Source: a virus
Taxonomy: Duplodnaviria; Heunggongvirae; Uroviricota; Caudoviricetes
DNA length: 5,048 bases
Strand: one strand, 5' to 3'
Virus record (IMG/VR): IMGVR_UViG_2663762839_000011
Location: 1-5,048 of that record
The position numbers were made by a program, and so were the translations under genes. Below are positions 1 to 5,048 of this stretch, piece by piece. Each line of letters opens with the position of its first letter. Within the stretch, counting starts at the first letter, position 1. Below the pieces are notes generated by a model that was not told where the DNA came from, made no database searches, and saw nothing but the letters and a program-made list of their open reading frames with translations.

Positions 1-140
1 CATTGGGAAAAGTTGAGCTATATCTAAATTTACAAAATTGGATGTTATAGAAATCGAGGTTTCAACTAGGCATGGAACTGCAAAATTTTTAATGCCTGCA
101 CGCGAAAGTCGTTGGCGGGTCCTTTCCGGTGATCCAGATC

Positions 141-164
141 GTTACGGGGCGGCGACCTCGCGCG
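141..164. other. cos site core (cosN) of a lambdoid phage; 12-nt cohesive-end sequence GGGCGGCGACCT at 147-158
   Basis: Sequence ...ccggtgatccagatcgttacg|GGGCGGCGACCT|cgcgcgttttcactatttatga... matches from memory the junction of the lambda right end (...tttccggtgatccgacaggttacg) with the lambda left end (GGGCGGCGACCTcgcgggttttcgctatttatgaaaatttt). A Nu1-like gene begins about 215 nt downstream, as in lambda. Confidence 0.8.
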
Positions 165-374
165 TTTTCACTATTTATGAGATTTTTTGAGGGGGTGGTT
201 GTTGTTTAATTGTTTGGTATATCTAATTGATAAGTAAGGTGAAAATAAAATAAATACAACAACCTTACGATGTGTTTTGATGTCGTCAATGCGAAAAATG
301 TCAATGATATCAAATGGTTTTGCAAAAACACATGGTTGTTGTTTCGCTTTTTATCGATGACTTATGGAGAGGAG
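165..374 (+). promoter_or_regulatory. cosB-like region / AT-rich leader between cosN and the nu1-like start; presumed terminase small-subunit and IHF binding region
   Basis: Positional equivalence to lambda cosB (between cosN and the Nu1 ATG). The first ~35 nt after cosN resemble lambda, then the sequence diverges and is AT-rich. It contains the direct repeat TGGTTGTTGTTT at 196-207 and 333-344 and a partial IHF-like core (tATCAAatggTTt, about 308-320). The binding function is inferred, not demonstrated. Confidence 0.4.
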
Positions 375-836
375 ATGGCCTTTTTATTGAATAAAAGTGA
401 TATGGCCTCCTCCATCGGTATCTCTGTTCAGGCATTTGATAAATGGGGCGTTCCTCCTGTTGAACGTCGGGGGAGGGAAGTTTTATATGACGTTAAAACT
501 GTACTGGAGATAGATCGCGAGCGGCGACAACACAATCAGAGAACACCTGATGACGGGGGAGAACTGGAGGAAAGGCTGCTTCGGGCCAGAGCTGAACTGA
601 CAGAAGAACAGGCTGTAGCTCAAAAACTTAAAAATCAGGTAACCGAAGGTAAGCTCATCGATTCAGACTTCTGCGTTTTCGCCCTCAGCAAACTGGCGAT
701 GGCATTGTCCAGTACGCTTGATTCCATTCCGTTATCCATGCAGCGACAGTTCCCGGATTTAACGCCACGTCATATTGACCATCTGAAAACCCTTATTGCA
801 AAGGGCGCAAATCAGTGTGCGCGGGCAGGGGATACG
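375..836 (+). pseudogene. nu1: Nu1-like terminase small subunit (DNA packaging protein), 5' fragment lacking the C-terminal ~18 codons and its own stop codon; reads in frame into the lom upstream region
   Basis: The translation from ATG 375 (MAFLLNKSDMASSIGISVQAFDKWGVPPVERRGREVLYDV...LTEEQAVAQKLKN...DFCVFALSKLAMALSSTLDSIPLSMQRQFPDLTPRHIDHLKTLIAKGANQCA) aligns along its length with lambda Nu1 as I recall it (MEVNKKQLADIFGASIRTIQNWQEQGMPV...EVLYDS...LTRAQADAQELKN...AFCTFVLSRIAGEIASILDGLPLSVQRRFPELENRHVDFLKRDIIKAMNKAA), including the N-terminal helix-turn-helix segment. A GGAGAGGAG ribosome-binding site lies at 366-374. Homology is lost after about nt 825 and there is no stop before the lom stop at 1482-1484. 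The start is uncertain: in-frame ATGs also occur at 270, 357 and 402. Confidence 0.65.
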
Positions 837-863
837 GGCGCCAGAAATGGCGCCTTTTTTATT
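837..863 (+). terminator. Rho-independent terminator hairpin (GGCGCCA-GAAA-TGGCGCC followed by TTTTTTATT)
   Basis: Perfect 7-bp GC-rich stem at 837-843 and 848-854, GAAA tetraloop at 844-847, and a run of six T at 855-860. It lies 22 nt upstream of the lom start codon and inside the nu1-lom reading frame. Confidence 0.65.
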
Positions 864-884
864 GCAGAAAAGCGAGAGGTAATT

Positions 885-1484
885 ATGCGTAAATTATGTG
901 CTGTTATTTTGTCCGCAGTAGTCTGGCAGGTCGCCGCTGCTACGCCAGCGAGTGCAGCAGAACATCAGTCCACGCTGAGCGCGGGGTATCTCCATGCCTC
1001 GACGAACGTTCCCGGTAGTGATGATCTGAACGGGATTAACGTGAAATACCGTTATGAGTTTACGGACGCGCTGGGGCTGATTACGTCCTTCAGTTATGCC
1101 AATGCTGAGGATGAGCAAAAAACGCGCTACAGCGATACCCGCTGGCATGAAGATTCCGTGCGTAACCGCTGGTTCAGCGTGATGGCGGGGCCGTCTGTAC
1201 GCGTGAATGAATGGTTCAGCGCGTATTCGATGGCGGGTGTGGCTTACAGCCGTGTGTCGACTTTCTCCGGGGATTATCTCCGCGTAACTGACAACAAGGG
1301 GAAAACGCACGATGTGCTGACCGGAAGTGATGACGGTCGCCACAGCAACACGTCTCTGGCGTGGGGGGCTGGCGTGCAGTTTAACCCGACCGAATCCGTG
1401 ACCATTGACCTTGCTTATGAAGGTTCCGGTAGTGGCGACTGGCGAACGGATGCATTTATTGTTGGTATCGGATACCGTTTCTGA
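885..1484 (+). CDS. lom: Lom outer-membrane protein (Ail/Lom/PagC/Rck/OmpX family 8-strand beta-barrel), 199 aa
   Basis: The translation MRKLCAVILSAVVWQVAAATPASAAEHQSTLSAGYLHASTNVPGSDDLNGINVKYRYEFTD...WRTDAFIVGIGYRF has a Sec signal peptide with an ASA|AE-type cleavage site, alternating-hydrophobic beta-strand patterning, and a C-terminal aromatic residue (YRF) typical of outer-membrane beta-barrels. It closely resembles lambda Lom from memory. Ribosome-binding site GAGAGG at 874-879, 5 nt before the ATG. Stop TGA at 1482-1484. Confidence 0.9.
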   Translation: MRKLCAVILSAVVWQVAAATPASAAEHQSTLSAGYLHASTNVPGSDDLNGINVKYRYEFTDALGLITSFSYANAEDEQKTRYSDTRWHEDSVRNRWFSVMAGPSVRVNEWFSAYSMAGVAYSRVSTFSGDYLRVTDNKGKTHDVLTGSDDGRHSNTSLAWGAGVQFNPTESVTIDLAYEGSGSGDWRTDAFIVGIGYRF

Positions 1485-1589
1485 CAACAGACGCCGATTT
1501 ATCTTCTGTAAATATTGTTATGATACGCAGGTTCATCCACCTTATGGGGTGAACTGCGTTTGAGGAAACGTAAAGTTACACTGTCCTGA

Positions 1590-1622
1590 AGCCCGTGGCG
1601 TCACTGCTGCGGGCTTTTTTTA
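1590..1622 (+). terminator. Probable intrinsic terminator downstream of lom (about 10-bp stem with two G-U pairs, followed by a T7 run)
   Basis: AGCCCGTGGC (1590-1599) pairs with GCTGCGGGCT (1606-1615) around a 6-nt loop, followed by TTTTTTT at 1615-1621. It sits between the lom stop and the stf ribosome-binding site. Confidence 0.5.
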
Positions 1623-1635
1623 TTGGTGGAAAAGT

Positions 1636-4470
1636 ATGACAGTAAAAATTTCTGGCGTGCTTAAAGATGGCACAGGAAAACCAGTACAGAACTGCACCAT
1701 TGTGCTGAAGGCCAGACGAACCAGCAGCACGGTGGTGGTGAACACGGTGGCCTCTGAAAATCCGGATGAAGCCGGACGTTACAGCATGGATGTTGAGCAT
1801 GGCCAGTACAGCGTCACCCTGCTGGTTGAAGGTTTTCCGCCTTCACATGCCGGGATCATTACCGTCTATGAAGGTTCCAGACCCGGTACGCTGAATGATT
1901 TTCTCGGTGCCATGACGGAGGATGATGTCCGACCGGAGGCACTGCGCCGCTTTGAGCAGATGGTGGAAGAGGTGTCACGTAACGCCTCCGCGGTTGCACA
2001 GAACACGGCAGCCGCGAAGAAGTCAGCCAGCGATGCCAGCATATCTGCCAGTGAGGCGGCAACCCATGCGACTGATGCTGCAGGCTCAGCACGTGCAGCC
2101 AGCACATCAGCCGGGCAGGCCGCGACGTCGGCTCAGTCAGCGTCTTCCAGCGCAGGAACGGCATCAACAAAGGCTACTGAAGCATCAAAAAGTGCTGCCG
2201 CTGCAGAGTCCTCAAAAAGCGCGGTGGCTACCAGTGCCGGTGCGGCGAAAACGTCAGAAACGAATGCGGCTGCGTCACAACAATCAGCAGCCACTTCTGC
2301 ATCCACCGCGACCACGAAAGCGTCAGAAGCAGCCACTTCAGCACGGGATGCGGCGGCCTCAAAAGAGGCAGCGAAGACATCCGAAACGAACGCGAAAGCC
2401 TCGGAAACCAGCGCAGAATCCTCAAAAACGGCTGCCGCATCGTCCGCCAGTTCGGCGGCGTCATCGGCATCATCTGCGTCTGCTTCAAAAGATGAGGCGA
2501 CCAGACAGGCGTCAGCAGCAAAGGGCAGCGCCACGACGGCATCCACGAAGGCGACAGAGGCAGCTGGCAGTGCGACGGCGGCAGCTCAGAGCAAAAGTAC
2601 GGCGGAATCCGCGGCAACGCGCGCCGAGACAGCGGCAAAACGGGCAGAGGATATTGCATCCGCCGTGGCGCTTGAGGATGCGAGCACGACGAAAAAGGGG
2701 ATAGTACAGCTCAGCAGTGCAACCAACAGCACATCTGAAACGCTTGCCGCGACACCGAAGGCAGTTAAAGCAGCGAATGACAATGCGAATGGCAGGGTAC
2801 CATCTAACCGAAAAGTTAACGGGAAAGCACTGACTGCGGATATAACATTAACACCGAAAGATATTGGCACTTTAAATTCAGTAACGATCTCTTTCTCTGG
2901 CGGGGCAGGGTGGTTCAAACTGGCAACGGTTACCATGCCACAAGCGAGTTCCATCGTTTACATCGCATTGATTGGTGGCGCTGGATTTAACGTGGGGGCA
3001 CCTCAACAGGCAGGTATATCTGAACTGGCTCTACGAGCAGGCAATGGAAACCCCAAAGGGATTACCGGAGCTTTGTGGAAGCGTACAGCCGTCGGATTAA
3101 CGAATTTCGCCTGGATCAACACATCCGGCGATATATATGATATTTACGTTGAGATTGGCAATTATGCGACGAGTGTAAATATCCATTGGGATTGTACTAC
3201 AAATGCGTCAGTTTCTATTTATACCTCGCTAACATATTCAGCGAGTAAGCCTTCCAGCGTTACCGATGGTGTTGTTTATACGATGTATAGCTCACATCAG
3301 AAACCTACACCATCAGATATTGGAGCGCTGCCAACAACTGGAGGGACTATTTCAGGTCCGTTGTCTGTTACTGATGGGATCACCGGGGCACTGAAGGGGA
3401 ACGCCGATACCGCGACGAAACTTGCGGCAGACCCAAAAATTAACGGTGTTAAGTTTGATGGCTCGGCGGATATTAACCTCACGCCGGAAAATATTGGTGC
3501 ATTTGCCCGACGTTCGACGGGGGCTTATGCGGATTCGGATGGAGCCGTTCCCTGGAATGCCGAATCAGGCGCTTACAATGTCACCCGCTCTGGCGACAGC
3601 TATATTCTGGTTAACTTCTATACCGGAGTCGGAAGTTGCCGGACCCTGCAGATGAAGGCGCATTACAGAAATGGTGGTCTGTTCTACCGTTCTTCAAGAG
3701 ACGGTTATGGTTTTGAGGAAGACTGGGCAGAAGTTTATACCTCGAAAAATCTTCCACCAGAAAGCTACCCAGTCGGTGCACCAATCCCGTGGCCATCAGA
3801 TACCGTTCCGTCTGGTTATGCCCTGATGCAGGGGCAGACTTTTGACAAATCTGCTTACCCGAAACTTGCAGTGGCTTATCCGTCAGGCGTTATTCCTGAT
3901 ATGCGTGGCTGGACGATTAAGGGCAAGCCCGCCAGTGATCGAGCCGTATTGTCTCAGGAACAGGACGGCATTAAATCGCACACCCACAGCGCCAGCGCAT
4001 CCAGTACGGATTTGGGGACGAAAACCACATCGTCGTTTGATTACGGCACTAAATCCACGAATAACACCGGGGCGCATACGCACAGTCTGAGTGGCTCTAC
4101 GGGGTCTGCCGGTGATCATACTCATGGTAATGGTATTCGTTGGCCAGGAGGCGGCGGTTCTGCGTTAGCATTTTATGATGGCGGTGGGTTCACTTATGTC
4201 CAGGATTCACAGTATCAAGTAAGACCGGAGACTTCTTCCTATAGATCGTATTATCAACGTATTCAGACACAGTCAGCAGGTGCTCATACCCACTCGCTGT
4301 CTGGTACTGCAGCAAGTTCTGGCGCACATGCACATACTGTAGGTATTGGTGCGCATACGCACTCCGTTGCGATTGGTTCACATGGACACACCATCACCGT
4401 TAACGCTGCGGGTAACGCGGAAAACACCGTCAAAAACATCGCATTTAACTATATTGTGAGGCTTGCATAA
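1636..4470 (+). CDS. stf: Side tail fibre protein Stf, full length (944 aa), mosaic
   Basis: Ribosome-binding site GGTGGA at 1625-1630, ATG at 1636. The N-terminus ([62 protein letters not shown]...) closely matches lambda Stf (orf-401) from memory, followed by an Ala/Ser/Thr-rich region. The C-terminus (...[54 protein letters not shown]...[49 protein letters not shown]) matches the lambda Stf / T4 gp37-like His-x-His tip. Uninterrupted 2835-nt ORF; stop TAA at 4468-4470. Confidence 0.9.
1990..2660 (+). repeat. Low-complexity Ala/Ser/Thr/Lys/Glu-rich segment of stf with imperfect periodic repeats (AAKTSETNA at 2242-2268 and 2368-2394, 42 codons apart)
   Basis: Protein segment ...[161 protein letters not shown]... 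The GC-rich repetitive GCN/TCN/ACN codons produce long spurious ORFs in other frames on both strands. Confidence 0.6.
3970..4400 (+). repeat. His-x-His repeat region of the stf C-terminal tip (predicted metal-coordinating fibre tip as in T4 gp37)
   Basis: Recurrent HxH motifs: [72 protein letters not shown]. The unit GAHTHSLSG occurs twice. Confidence 0.55.
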
Positions 4471-5048
4471 TGGCATTCAGAATGAGTGAACAAGCACGGA
4501 CCATAAAAATTTATAATCTGCTGGCCGGAACTAATGAATTTATTGGTGAAGGTGACGCATATATTCCGCCTCATACAGGTCTGCCAGCAAACAGTACCGA
4601 TATTGCACCACCAGATATTCCTGCTGGCTTTGTGGCTGTTTTCAACAGTGATGAGGCATCGTGGCATCTCGTTGAAGACCATCGGGGTAAAACGGTTTAT
4701 GACGTAGCGTCAGGGGACGAGTTATTTATTTCTGAACTCGGTCCGTTACCGGAAAATGTTACCTGGTTATCGCCGGAAGGGGAGTTTCAGAAGTGGAACG
4801 GCACAGCCTGGGTGAAGGATACGGAAGCAGAAAAACTGTTCCGGATCCGGGAGGCGGAAGAAACAAAAAACAGCCTGATGCAGGTAGCCAGCGAGCATAT
4901 TGCGCCGCTTCAGGATGCTGCAGATCTGGAAATTGCAACAGAGGAAGAAATCTCGTTGCTGGAAGCATGGAAAAAGTATCGGGTATTGCTGAACCGTGTT
5001 GATACGTCAACTGCACAGGATATTGAATGGCCAGTAGCACCTATAGGG
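4470..5048 (+). CDS. tfa: Tail fibre assembly protein Tfa (homologue of lambda Tfa / T4 gp38-type chaperone); 3' end beyond the window (193 codons present, no stop)
   Basis: ATG at 4470-4472 overlaps the stf stop (TAATG); ribosome-binding site TGAGG at 4457-4461. The translation [193 protein letters not shown] is near-identical to lambda Tfa as I recall it. It is absent from the supplied ORF track only because it lacks an in-window stop codon. Confidence 0.9.

Follow-up and report, generated by a model that had tools for sequence, protein, structure and literature searches.

A lambda-like Escherichia coli prophage remnant in which cos and a clipped nu1 gene adjoin lom, stf, and tfa, probably through a single internal deletion

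How did a cos site and the small terminase subunit gene come to lie directly beside lom, stf, and tfa, with the block of head and tail genes missing from between them? The stretch of DNA that raises this question (here called the window) is 5,048 bp long and represents the complete contig CDRI01000475.1, without flanking sequence, of a fragmented E. coli draft assembly (GCA_000946855.1) comprising at least 475 contigs. The first-pass annotation had placed cos and nu1 immediately next to lom-stf-tfa and had noted the absence of the head and tail genes; Pfam matches and alignments confirm all of these elements and their places. A search for tandem repeats in the window found none, and a search for literature on the assembly and contig accessions likewise returned nothing.

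By sequence, the cos site of the window is complete, in agreement with the earlier description of an apparently intact site: a lambda-type cosN is preceded by cosQ and followed by a three-part cosB of the form R3-I1-R2-R1. cosQ, the signal for terminal cos cleavage, is present as GGGTCCT at positions 117 to 123 on the plus strand. It lies inside a block (116 to 127) whose 12-mer, CGGGTCCTTTCC, is the same in lambda and in the phage 21 record M81255.1, and which corresponds to R4 in the phage 21 annotation. The 12-nt cohesive-end sequence of cosN, GGGCGGCGACCT, occupies positions 147 to 158 (plus strand) and is identical to the left end of lambda. The flanks of cosN, GTTACG and CGCG, are also conserved relative to lambda, and nicks would be expected at 146/147 on the top strand and at 158/159 on the bottom strand. 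When the region was compared with the annotated cos site of phage 21 by BLAST, window positions 109 to 193 aligned with 84.7% identity (E = 5e-17). An I2-like segment between cosN and cosB (TATGAGATTTTTTGA, 176 to 190, plus strand) aligns with the annotated I2 IHF site of phage 21, TATGAAAATTTTTCA.

The three R boxes of cosB share the core GGTTGTTGT, which occurs 3 times in the window, compared with 0.04 occurrences expected by chance. The R3 box, GTGGTTGTTGTTTAAT (195 to 210, plus strand, with its core at 197 to 205), matches the R3 box of N15, GAGGTTGTTGTTTAAT, and is probably where binding of the small terminase subunit is critical. N15 R3 is located at bp 48 to 63 of N15, and its distance from the cohesive end agrees to within 1 nt with that of the window's R3, the core of which spans bp 51 to 59 counted from the start of the cohesive end. 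The R2 box (251 to 266, minus strand, core at 256 to 264) is inverted relative to R3, while R1 (331 to 346, plus strand) was identified by a core match at 334 to 342. The resulting orientation of +,-,+ is the one found for R3-R2-R1 in lambda and phage 21 (PMC9026076). One or more putative IHF sites (I1, 207 to 232, minus strand) lie between R3 and R2, followed by an A-tract-rich segment, at a position that agrees with I1 of lambda and phage 21; the candidates are 1-mismatch matches to WATCAANNNNTTR at 207 to 219 and 220 to 232, which constitute weak, consensus-only evidence. Taken together, these features suggest that the window carries a "Monarch-type" cos site as described by Feiss and coworkers (PMC4669245). 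Its R3 box nearly reproduces that of N15, and its TerS has an N-terminal DNA-binding region that is almost the same as that of N15 gp1. The Monarch group, to which the window is likened by description, also has three R boxes (+,-,+), with R3 and R2 separated by an IHF-like site. In contrast with N15, however, the window has the lambda cohesive end rather than the N15 variant, and its TerS is truncated at the C terminus.

The truncated gene, nu1' (375 to 833, plus strand), starts with the ATG at 375, which is preceded by the Shine-Dalgarno sequence GGAGAGGAG at 365 to 373, and lacks its 3' end. The similarity of its product to Nu1, which had been proposed at first pass, is significant in a profile search (Pfam Phage_Nu1, PF07471; E = 1.5e-21; 77.1 bits versus a cutoff of 30; profile positions 4 to 163 of 164). 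Nu1' is 49% identical to N15 gp1, with the first 36 amino acids being near-identical, and it is 100% identical to WP_001405844.1 as far as residue 153 of 168 (nt 833/834). Thus, while the Nu1 homology does come to a stop, it does so at 833/834 rather than near nt 825 as originally thought, and the term "fragment" overstated the damage, since just 15 codons are missing. The 153 codons that are retained cover the N-terminal DNA-binding and central oligomerization parts of the protein. The last 15 amino acids of Nu1, KLPDLLDEYIRATTE, which include a conserved LLxEYI motif, have been replaced by residues encoded by the spacer, and the nu1 stop codon is gone. In lambda, the C-terminal region of TerS binds TerL (PMC9026076), and alignment with relatives indicates that Nu1' has no intact TerL-binding C-terminal end. 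Nu1' would accordingly be expected to be nonfunctional as a terminase subunit. No terL gene lies directly downstream of or overlaps nu1', and no terL sequence is present in the window; lom follows at 885 instead. A search for solved structures matching Nu1' by sequence found none.

On the other side of the junction, lom (885 to 1484, plus strand) encodes an Ail/Lom outer membrane beta-barrel moron of 199 amino acids. As previously noted, the gene begins at 885 and is intact: its product matches Pfam Ail_Lom over its full length (residues 1 to 199 of 199; E = 3e-124) and differs from the O104:H4 protein WP_001228314.1 by 1 amino acid. lom has a ribosome-binding site of its own (GAGAGG, 873 to 878) and may still be expressed from its own signals. 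A terminator-like hairpin is predicted 3' of lom (1588 to 1624, plus strand). The further claim of an intact fiber-plus-chaperone pair could be upheld for only one of the two genes. The side tail fiber gene stf (1636 to 4470, plus strand) is full length, and its 944-amino-acid product (Pfam phage_tail_N [E = 1e-69], Phage_fiber_2, and Collar) is equal in length to the O104:H4 protein, from which it differs at 5 amino acids. The tail fiber assembly chaperone gene tfa (4470 to 5048, plus strand; Pfam Caudo_TAP, E = 2.5e-43), in contrast, is not demonstrably intact, since the contig end cuts it after 193 codons, ~2 codons short of the stop; the O104:H4 homologue has 194 amino acids, and the final 16 nt of the window diverge from the O104:H4 tfa reference. 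An exact-protein look-up of Stf returned a match only in the window's own contig. Stf and TerL were found to cocluster in protein clusters, but upon checking, this did not reflect real similarity.

The two modules meet at positions 831 to 834 (unstranded), where a three-way alignment revealed a clean switch at a 4-bp microhomology, GATA, that is present on the nu1 flank as well as in the J-lom spacer; the BLAST alignments of the two flanks overlap at the same place. The left breakpoint precedes the nu1 stop codon by 47 nt and the terL start by 19 nt, and the right breakpoint is 14 nt past the J stop codon, in the J-lom spacer. The suggestion that one breakpoint lies in nu1 and the other between J and lom is therefore correct, with both now mapped to the base pair by alignment and BLAST. 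Over positions 1 to 834, the window shares 99.5% identity with the cos-nu1 module found in intact ompW prophages (STEC17-190 and four other genomes), with 4 differing positions relative to STEC17-190, and the first 111 nt match a prophage late region. Positions 831 to 5032 match the ompW prophage of O104:H4 at 99.5% identity, from the J-lom spacer through lom and stf into tfa.

In the prophages of STEC17-190 and these four genomes, terL, the portal, capsid, and tail genes, J, and lom come after nu1 (507 nt). By intersecting two BLAST lists, we found candidate parental prophages of the AR_0017 type. AR_0017 is one of at least five complete genomes in which lom-stf-tfa lies 18.9 kb downstream of a nu1 module that is 100% identical to the window over positions 195 to 834, and in a sixth genome, this spacing is 20.2 kb. 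The two blocks have the same orientation and are located within one prophage in these six genomes, and the lom-stf-tfa block of AR_0017 and similar genomes is 94 to 95% similar to that of the window. Specifically, window positions 117 to 834 correspond to positions 22630 to 23347 of AR_0017 record L064, and positions 831 to 1474 correspond to positions 42265 to 42908, the two segments having one orientation and being separated by 18.9 kb, such that the flanks are collinear with the intact prophage except for one missing segment. Direct inspection of the AR_0017 prophage (NZ_CP024886.1, 584673 to 633498) showed it to be ~49 kb long and bounded by int and ompW'. The attR side was inspected in STEC17-190, O104:H4, and AR_0017, and in all three it is at ompW, next to yciE and trp. 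These "PPompW" prophages (O104:H4 2011C-3493, STEC17-190, and AR_0017), which are 99.5% identical to the window on both sides of the junction, have the module order cos-nu1 ... J-lom-stf-tfa-methyltransferase-ompW', with which the window is collinear, but they differ from it in retaining terL through J (about 18.9 to 19.4 kb).

Based on these comparisons, the junction is probably the scar of one illegitimate-recombination deletion of ~18.9 kb inside a lambda-like prophage of the ompW-integrating E. coli family. The removal of terL through J by a single deletion had been proposed from the outset, and both the 99.5% identity of the flanks to intact prophages and the same-orientation, 18.9-kb spacing in AR_0017 support it. 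According to this scheme, the parent would have had the order lysis genes, cos, nu1, terL (A), W, portal ... J, lom, stf, tfa, and attR. The DNA would have broken within nu1, 47 nt from its end, and again 14 nt past the J stop codon, and rejoining at the GATA microhomology would have eliminated the gene for the large terminase subunit along with all of the head and tail genes. The nu1 frame, having lost its stop codon, would then run through the old J terminator into lom, and a complete cos site, a clipped nu1, the lom moron, and the stf-tfa pair would be left behind. We infer that only one deletion took place, within one prophage, and that the resulting element would be unable to make particles by itself.

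Since the nearest relatives of the two modules differ, the exact parent does not appear to be in the databases. The five genomes that match window positions 1 to 111, which are the nearest to the left module, have a different lom (~80% identity, 207 amino acids), whereas a phage 21-type nu1 is found in those nearest to the right module. None of the listed genomes combines exactly the window's nu1 allele with exactly the window's lom-stf allele.

The window thus appears to be an ordinary decayed lambda-like E. coli prophage, and the proposal that it is a cryptic remnant comparable to those of K-12 is well founded. The annotated K-12 record contains nohD-aaaD'-tfaD in DLP12 and nohA-stfQ-tfaQ-pinQ in Qin; in both, as in the window, a Nu1 homologue located 3' of the lysis genes abuts fiber or fiber assembly genes, the head-tail block having been deleted. 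The K-12 prophages differ in that their distal breakpoints are inside stf or tfa, resulting in truncated fiber genes, and in that the proximal breakpoint of DLP12 is inside terL. In the window, by comparison, the proximal break clips nu1, and the distal break is in the J-lom spacer, which leaves lom and stf full length. In addition, the Nu1/cosB type of the window is N15-like, and its likely integration site is ompW.

An alternative that is absent from the first-pass annotation, and that we consider unlikely, is that the junction is an assembly or library chimera, produced in a short-read draft with several near-identical lambdoid prophages, and that the real nu1-terL and J-lom joins are normal. 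The window is, after all, a complete 5-kb contig from a draft of at least 475 contigs, the nearest relatives of its two halves are different prophage variants, and the junction recurred in none of the collections searched. Specifically, megablast against 5,426 complete E. coli genomes returned no record covering ≥80% of window positions 700 to 960, and exact junction-spanning 30-, 22-, and 18-mers had no relevant matches in viral, metagenome, and species-representative genome collections (the 49 matches to the 18-mer were chance matches in unrelated taxa). Furthermore, the left breakpoint is only ~93 nt before the point where terL homology resumes among ompW prophage variants, and regions of this kind often cause branches in assembly graphs. 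However, the breakpoint does not fall exactly on this mosaic boundary, and a de Bruijn or overlap misjoin requires a common k-mer, whereas the flanks have just 4 bp in common. The contig contains 0 Ns or scaffolding marks and passes through the junction without a break; the unbroken sequence around the junction, 0.8 kb to its left and 4.2 kb to its right, would argue against a competing nu1-terL or J-lom path of the same sequence in the assembly. Real deletions of exactly this type are also common in E. coli prophages, as DLP12 and Qin illustrate.

Since the nearest relatives of the modules differ, the two halves could also derive from two prophages of one genome. The junction would then be real but would result from illegitimate recombination between two prophages, either by inversion or by a deletion across two loci or tandem prophages, and the head-tail genes would survive at the reciprocal junction. 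Some complete genomes, JKHS016 and O111:H21 15A among them, do carry the two modules at different places in the chromosome, and tandem or nested ompW prophages are found in the phage collection (PPompW plus an Stx2 phage, ~90 kb). Nevertheless, both modules are typical of one integration site, and a deletion within a single prophage is the simpler account because there are intact single prophages in which the two types of module have the order, orientation, and spacing that it requires. We therefore regard recombination between two prophages as very unlikely.

A further reading, which the first-pass annotation rightly flagged as speculative, concerns function rather than origin and is compatible with the deletion: the remnant may be a helper-dependent, cos-bearing element, in which a coresident or infecting lambdoid phage with a TerS of N15/Monarch specificity would cut cos and package the element, or the chromosome next to it, into its own capsids. 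Every cos subsite is present, and the region from R3 through nu1' (195 to 834) is 100% identical to that of complete prophages such as AR_0017. A matching terminase could be supplied by ~4% of complete E. coli genomes (202 to 220 of 5,426), which carry the same cos-nu1 module. Stable lambda particles, however, have a lower DNA limit of ~38 kb, and subtracting 18.9 kb from the ~49-kb parent leaves ~30 kb, which is below this limit. A lone chromosomal cos does not allow proper termination, Nu1' would be unable to recruit TerL by itself, and the window shows no sign of surviving excision or replication functions. The scar, moreover, resembles random decay, with its 4-bp microhomology, lost stop codon, and terminator within an open reading frame (ORF). 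Precedents for packaging in trans do exist. Sp4 of O157 Sakai has no intact terminase and yet is packaged, most likely by the Sp14 terminase acting on an identical cos site (PMC2669165), and packaging by a helper has been measured for passive prophages with a matched cosB (PMC4669245). Sp4 resembles the window element in being a lambdoid prophage with a damaged nu1/terminase region but a usable cos, although it has kept most of its genome length and its amplification, excision, and packaging were shown experimentally, whereas the window element has lost ~40% of its genome and is known from sequence alone. On balance, packaging of the remnant by a helper is highly improbable. Neither this reading nor that of a cryptic remnant is new, given the precedents in K-12 (DLP12 and Qin) and O157 Sakai.

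Comparison with the cos-type phage-inducible chromosomal islands (PICI; PMC9026076, PMC6739421) revealed a partial likeness. In their cos-rpp region, cosQ and cosN are just upstream of a gene for a protein of ~150 amino acids, Rpp, which resembles Nu1' in having winged-helix and oligomerization domains but no TerL-binding end and which relies on the helper TerS/TerL. The PICI cos site has no R repeats, however, and Rpp is a distinct protein, whereas the window has R boxes and a bona fide Pfam Nu1 clipped by a deletion. We rejected the classification of the window as a cos-type PICI or phage satellite based on these R repeats, the presence of Nu1 rather than Rpp, the presence of stf and tfa, the match of the first 111 nt to a prophage late region, and flanks that are 99.5% identical to prophage. 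It is highly improbable that the scar created an accidental proto-satellite, a ~30-kb remnant whose intact N15/Monarch-type cos would be cut by the terminase of a coresident lambdoid phage, with lom, stf, tfa, and the ompW-trp chromosome, now ~5 to 7 kb from cos, being packaged or mobilized and the clipped Nu1' binding cosB and pairing with the helper TerS in the manner of PICI Rpp proteins.

If the single deletion is accepted, its significance goes little beyond bookkeeping, as a further case in which a lambdoid prophage has decayed by a large internal deletion that spared morons and tail fiber genes. The deletion, mapped to the base pair and with a 4-bp microhomology, illustrates illegitimate recombination as a mechanism, and the locus bears the less-studied N15/Monarch-type three-part cosB. 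Were the remnant in fact packaged by a helper, the idea of a "defective prophage pool" would extend to elements without structural genes except fibers.

The deletion has also left its mark on gene calls. A read-through ORF of 369 amino acids (375 to 1484, plus strand) joins, in frame, the 153 amino acids of Nu1', 17 amino acids encoded by the former spacer, and the full Lom precursor. Within it lies an intrinsic terminator-like hairpin followed by a T-run (836 to 862, plus strand; an 8-pair stem with 6 GC pairs) that is identical in the O104:H4 J-lom spacer; it is the former post-J terminator. The Nu1'-Lom ORF is an accidental fusion, and in an exact-protein look-up it was on record only for contig CDRI01000475.1. 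The public gene call for the fusion starts at the ATG at 270, giving a product of 404 amino acids. Scars of this kind generate artifactual fusion ORFs, and the 404-amino-acid Nu1'-Lom call chains unrelated families together in protein clusters.

The window is the entirety of contig CDRI01000475.1 of draft assembly GCA_000946855.1, as revealed by an exact-protein look-up, so it comes without flanks and the borders of the element had to be judged from relatives. The ORF list and a Pfam scan yielded four genes: nu1, encoding the small terminase subunit (start at ATG 375); lom (885 to 1484; Ail_Lom, E=3e-124, full profile covered); stf, encoding a 944-aa side tail fiber (1636 to 4470) recorded as E. 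coli WP_072049022.1; and tfa, the tail fiber assembly gene (4470 to the contig end). The Nu1-like similarity reported in the first-pass annotation was significant in a profile search (Pfam PF07471, 77 bits against a cut-off of 30; E=1.5e-21).

By BLAST, positions 1 to 834 shared 99.5% identity with five complete E. coli genomes, and positions 112/117 to 834 were matched in ~200 further ones. In every case inspected, a 507-nt gene annotated "terminase small subunit" precedes terL, the portal, protease, decoration, and capsid genes, the tail genes, J, and lom. Positions 831 to 5032 were 99.5% identical to an O104:H4 prophage, with the match beginning just past J. A three-way alignment showed a clean changeover at GATA (831 to 834), the sole bases common to both parents. 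The BLAST ends and this alignment map the deletion breakpoints to 47 nt before the nu1 stop codon (19 nt upstream of the terL start) and 14 nt after the J stop codon, i.e., exactly where they had been predicted, inside nu1 and in the J-lom intergenic region.

The closest relatives of the left (cos-nu1) module carry a different lom (~80% identity), and those of the right (lom-stf-tfa) module carry a phage 21-type nu1. Since the nearest relatives of both halves thus carry another partner module, we sought the parental combination by intersecting the BLAST lists of the two halves. At least five genomes (AR_0017, SCU-125, CU37RT-2, GN02050, and B2.3) harbor a nu1 module that matches positions 195 to 834 of the window with 100% identity and, 18.9 kb downstream, a lom-stf-tfa block that is 94 to 95% similar; the spacing is 20.2 kb in GN06667/GN05476, and the two modules lie on the same strand in all of these genomes. 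The ~49-kb AR_0017 prophage reads int-xis ... Q-lysis-cos-nu1-terL ... J-lom-stf-tfa-methyltransferase-ompW', and the window corresponds to its positions 22630 to 23347 joined to 42265 onward, which implies the loss of ~18.9 kb. The right end was inspected in three reference prophages, all of which lie at ompW, beside yciE and trp; close relatives of the lom region are named "PPompW" phages in a phage collection. The existence of intact parental-type prophages with this spacing and orientation supports the earlier interpretation of one deletion. On these alignments, a single internal deletion in an ompW-type lambdoid prophage is the simplest account of the junction, and we consider it likely that this deletion is real.

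It is unlikely, in our judgment, that the junction is an assembly chimera absent from the cell. A graph mis-join requires a shared k-mer, whereas the flanks have only 4 bp in common; moreover, the left breakpoint falls 93 nt before the prophage variants regain homology, the contig is unbroken through the junction, and real deletions of this type are common. These points must be set against the absence of the junction from 5,426 complete E. coli genomes and from the viral, metagenome, and species-representative collections searched, the record of the fused ORF for this single contig only, the highly fragmented state of the assembly, and the error-prone nature of E. coli drafts holding several lambdoid prophages. 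That another kind of real rearrangement underlies the junction seems very improbable.

The deletion leaves a clipped small subunit, Nu1', that retains residues 1 to 153 of 168; spacer-encoded residues take the place of the last 15 (KLPDLLDEYIRATTE), which carried the LLxEYI motif that lambda, 21, and N15 conserve. Because lambda TerS binds TerL through its C-terminal region, and deletion of the last 30 residues impairs this binding (PMC9026076), Nu1' is probably crippled as a terminase subunit, and its partner TerL is absent from the window in any case. With the nu1 stop codon gone, the frame crosses the old post-J terminator (836 to 862) into lom, producing an ORF of 369 aa. The public annotation instead places the start at ATG 270, inside cosB, and gives a 404-aa Nu1'-Lom fusion (270 to 1484); both RefSeq and the alignment with N15 point to ATG 375 as the probable true start. 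The upstream start is also used in many Nu1 entries (203 aa), and the fused ORF brings Nu1 and Lom proteins into one 90%-identity cluster. We regard the fusion as an accident; an in-frame, stop-free passage over 17 codons would arise by chance about 1 time in 7 (our estimate).

The cos site is complete, as the first-pass annotation had suggested, comprising cosQ, cosN, and three R boxes. The lambda 12-nt cohesive-end sequence GGGCGGCGACCT (147 to 158) and the cosQ block CGGGTCCTTTCC (116 to 127) are both identical to those of lambda and of the annotated phage 21 cos, which was matched by BLAST (E=5e-17). Three copies of GGTTGTTGT (chance expectation, 0.04) at 197 to 205 (+), 256 to 264 (-), and 334 to 342 (+) occupy the positions and orientations of lambda/21 R3, R2, and R1, with IHF-like consensus matches between the first two. 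The R3 box, GTGGTTGTTGTTTAAT, matches N15 R3, GAGGTTGTTGTTTAAT, at a distance from the cohesive end that is equal within 1 nt, and the first 36 residues of N15 gp1 are almost identical to those of the window protein. Phages of the "Monarch" group combine an N15-type recognition helix and R3 with a complex three-part cosB containing an IHF site, a published description that fits the window (PMC4669245). Its cosB reads as a three-part, Monarch-type site of N15 specificity paired with a lambda-type cohesive end. R3 through nu1' (195 to 834) is 100% identical to complete prophages such as AR_0017, and the cos-nu1 module is present in ~200 to 220 of the 5,426 complete E. coli genomes. Positions 1 to 834 differ from STEC17-190 at four positions only. 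The G-run between cosN and R3 (191 to 195) has 5 G against 6 in STEC17-190, which moves R3 by 1 bp, to bp 51 to 59 (bp 50 to 58 in N15); lambda reportedly tolerates spacing changes of 1 to 2 bp (PMC4669245). The phage collection includes related phages of the PhiR12 series (83% identity). Positions 1 to 111 were matched in five complete genomes only, in which they make up the region upstream of a divergent cassette of two genes ("sce7726 family protein" and "beta family protein"; e.g., L001 18294 to 19923) that is placed between the lysis genes and cos, is IS interrupted in two of the five, and may be a moron or defense cassette.

As an ordinary deletion derivative within an already known prophage family, the element adds one more case to a known kind. 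The comparison to K-12 cryptic remnants drawn earlier holds twice in the K-12 record: DLP12 has nohD, then the terminase fragment aaaD', then tfaD, and in Qin, nohA overlaps truncated stfQ, followed by tfaQ and pinQ. Since both share this architecture, such a remnant is a well-known kind of object. The alternative proposal, a cos-bearing element that might be packaged in trans by a helper terminase, is a legitimate idea with precedent: the O157 Sakai prophage Sp4, whose nu1 is disrupted, is still packaged, most likely by the terminase of Sp14, as the two have identical cos sites (PMC2669165). A helper packages passive prophages efficiently only when the cosB specificities match and two cos sites lie in tandem (PMC4669245). 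A matching helper would be on hand in ~4% of complete E. coli genomes. Several points count against efficient mobilization: a ~30-kb remnant falls short of the minimum length that lambda heads package, a single chromosomal cos provides no termination, and the window holds no sign of surviving excision or replication functions. The likeness to the PICI cos-rpp module, a cos plus a ~150-aa winged-helix protein without the TerL-binding end, is superficial, since the protein next to this cos is a truncated Nu1, the site has R boxes, and ordinary prophage sequence lies on either side.

The first-pass description of lom and the fiber-chaperone pair as intact stands for lom, which retains a ribosome-binding site of its own and is one residue away from the O104:H4 protein, and for Stf, which is equal in length to its O104:H4 counterpart with five residue differences; it is not borne out for tfa, which is cut by the contig end. 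The last 16 nt (5033 to 5048) diverge from O104:H4 tfa, the window's tfa shows 7 aa differences clustered C-terminally, and the contig appears to end at a mosaic or repeat boundary inside tfa. Stf contains a long Ala/Ser/Thr-rich segment (~aa 115 to 345; 1975 to 2650) and, in its C-terminal part, seven G-x-H-x-H motifs (~aa 775 to 925; 3950 to 4400); no tandem DNA repeat was detected, and the many long minus-strand or off-frame ORFs at 1859 to 2954 are by-products of Stf composition. In a clustered protein collection, Stf (P0016) was placed in a cluster whose representative and listed members are large terminase subunits, to which it has no BLASTP similarity, reflecting either a TerL'-'Stf fusion from another deletion scar or a clustering artifact.
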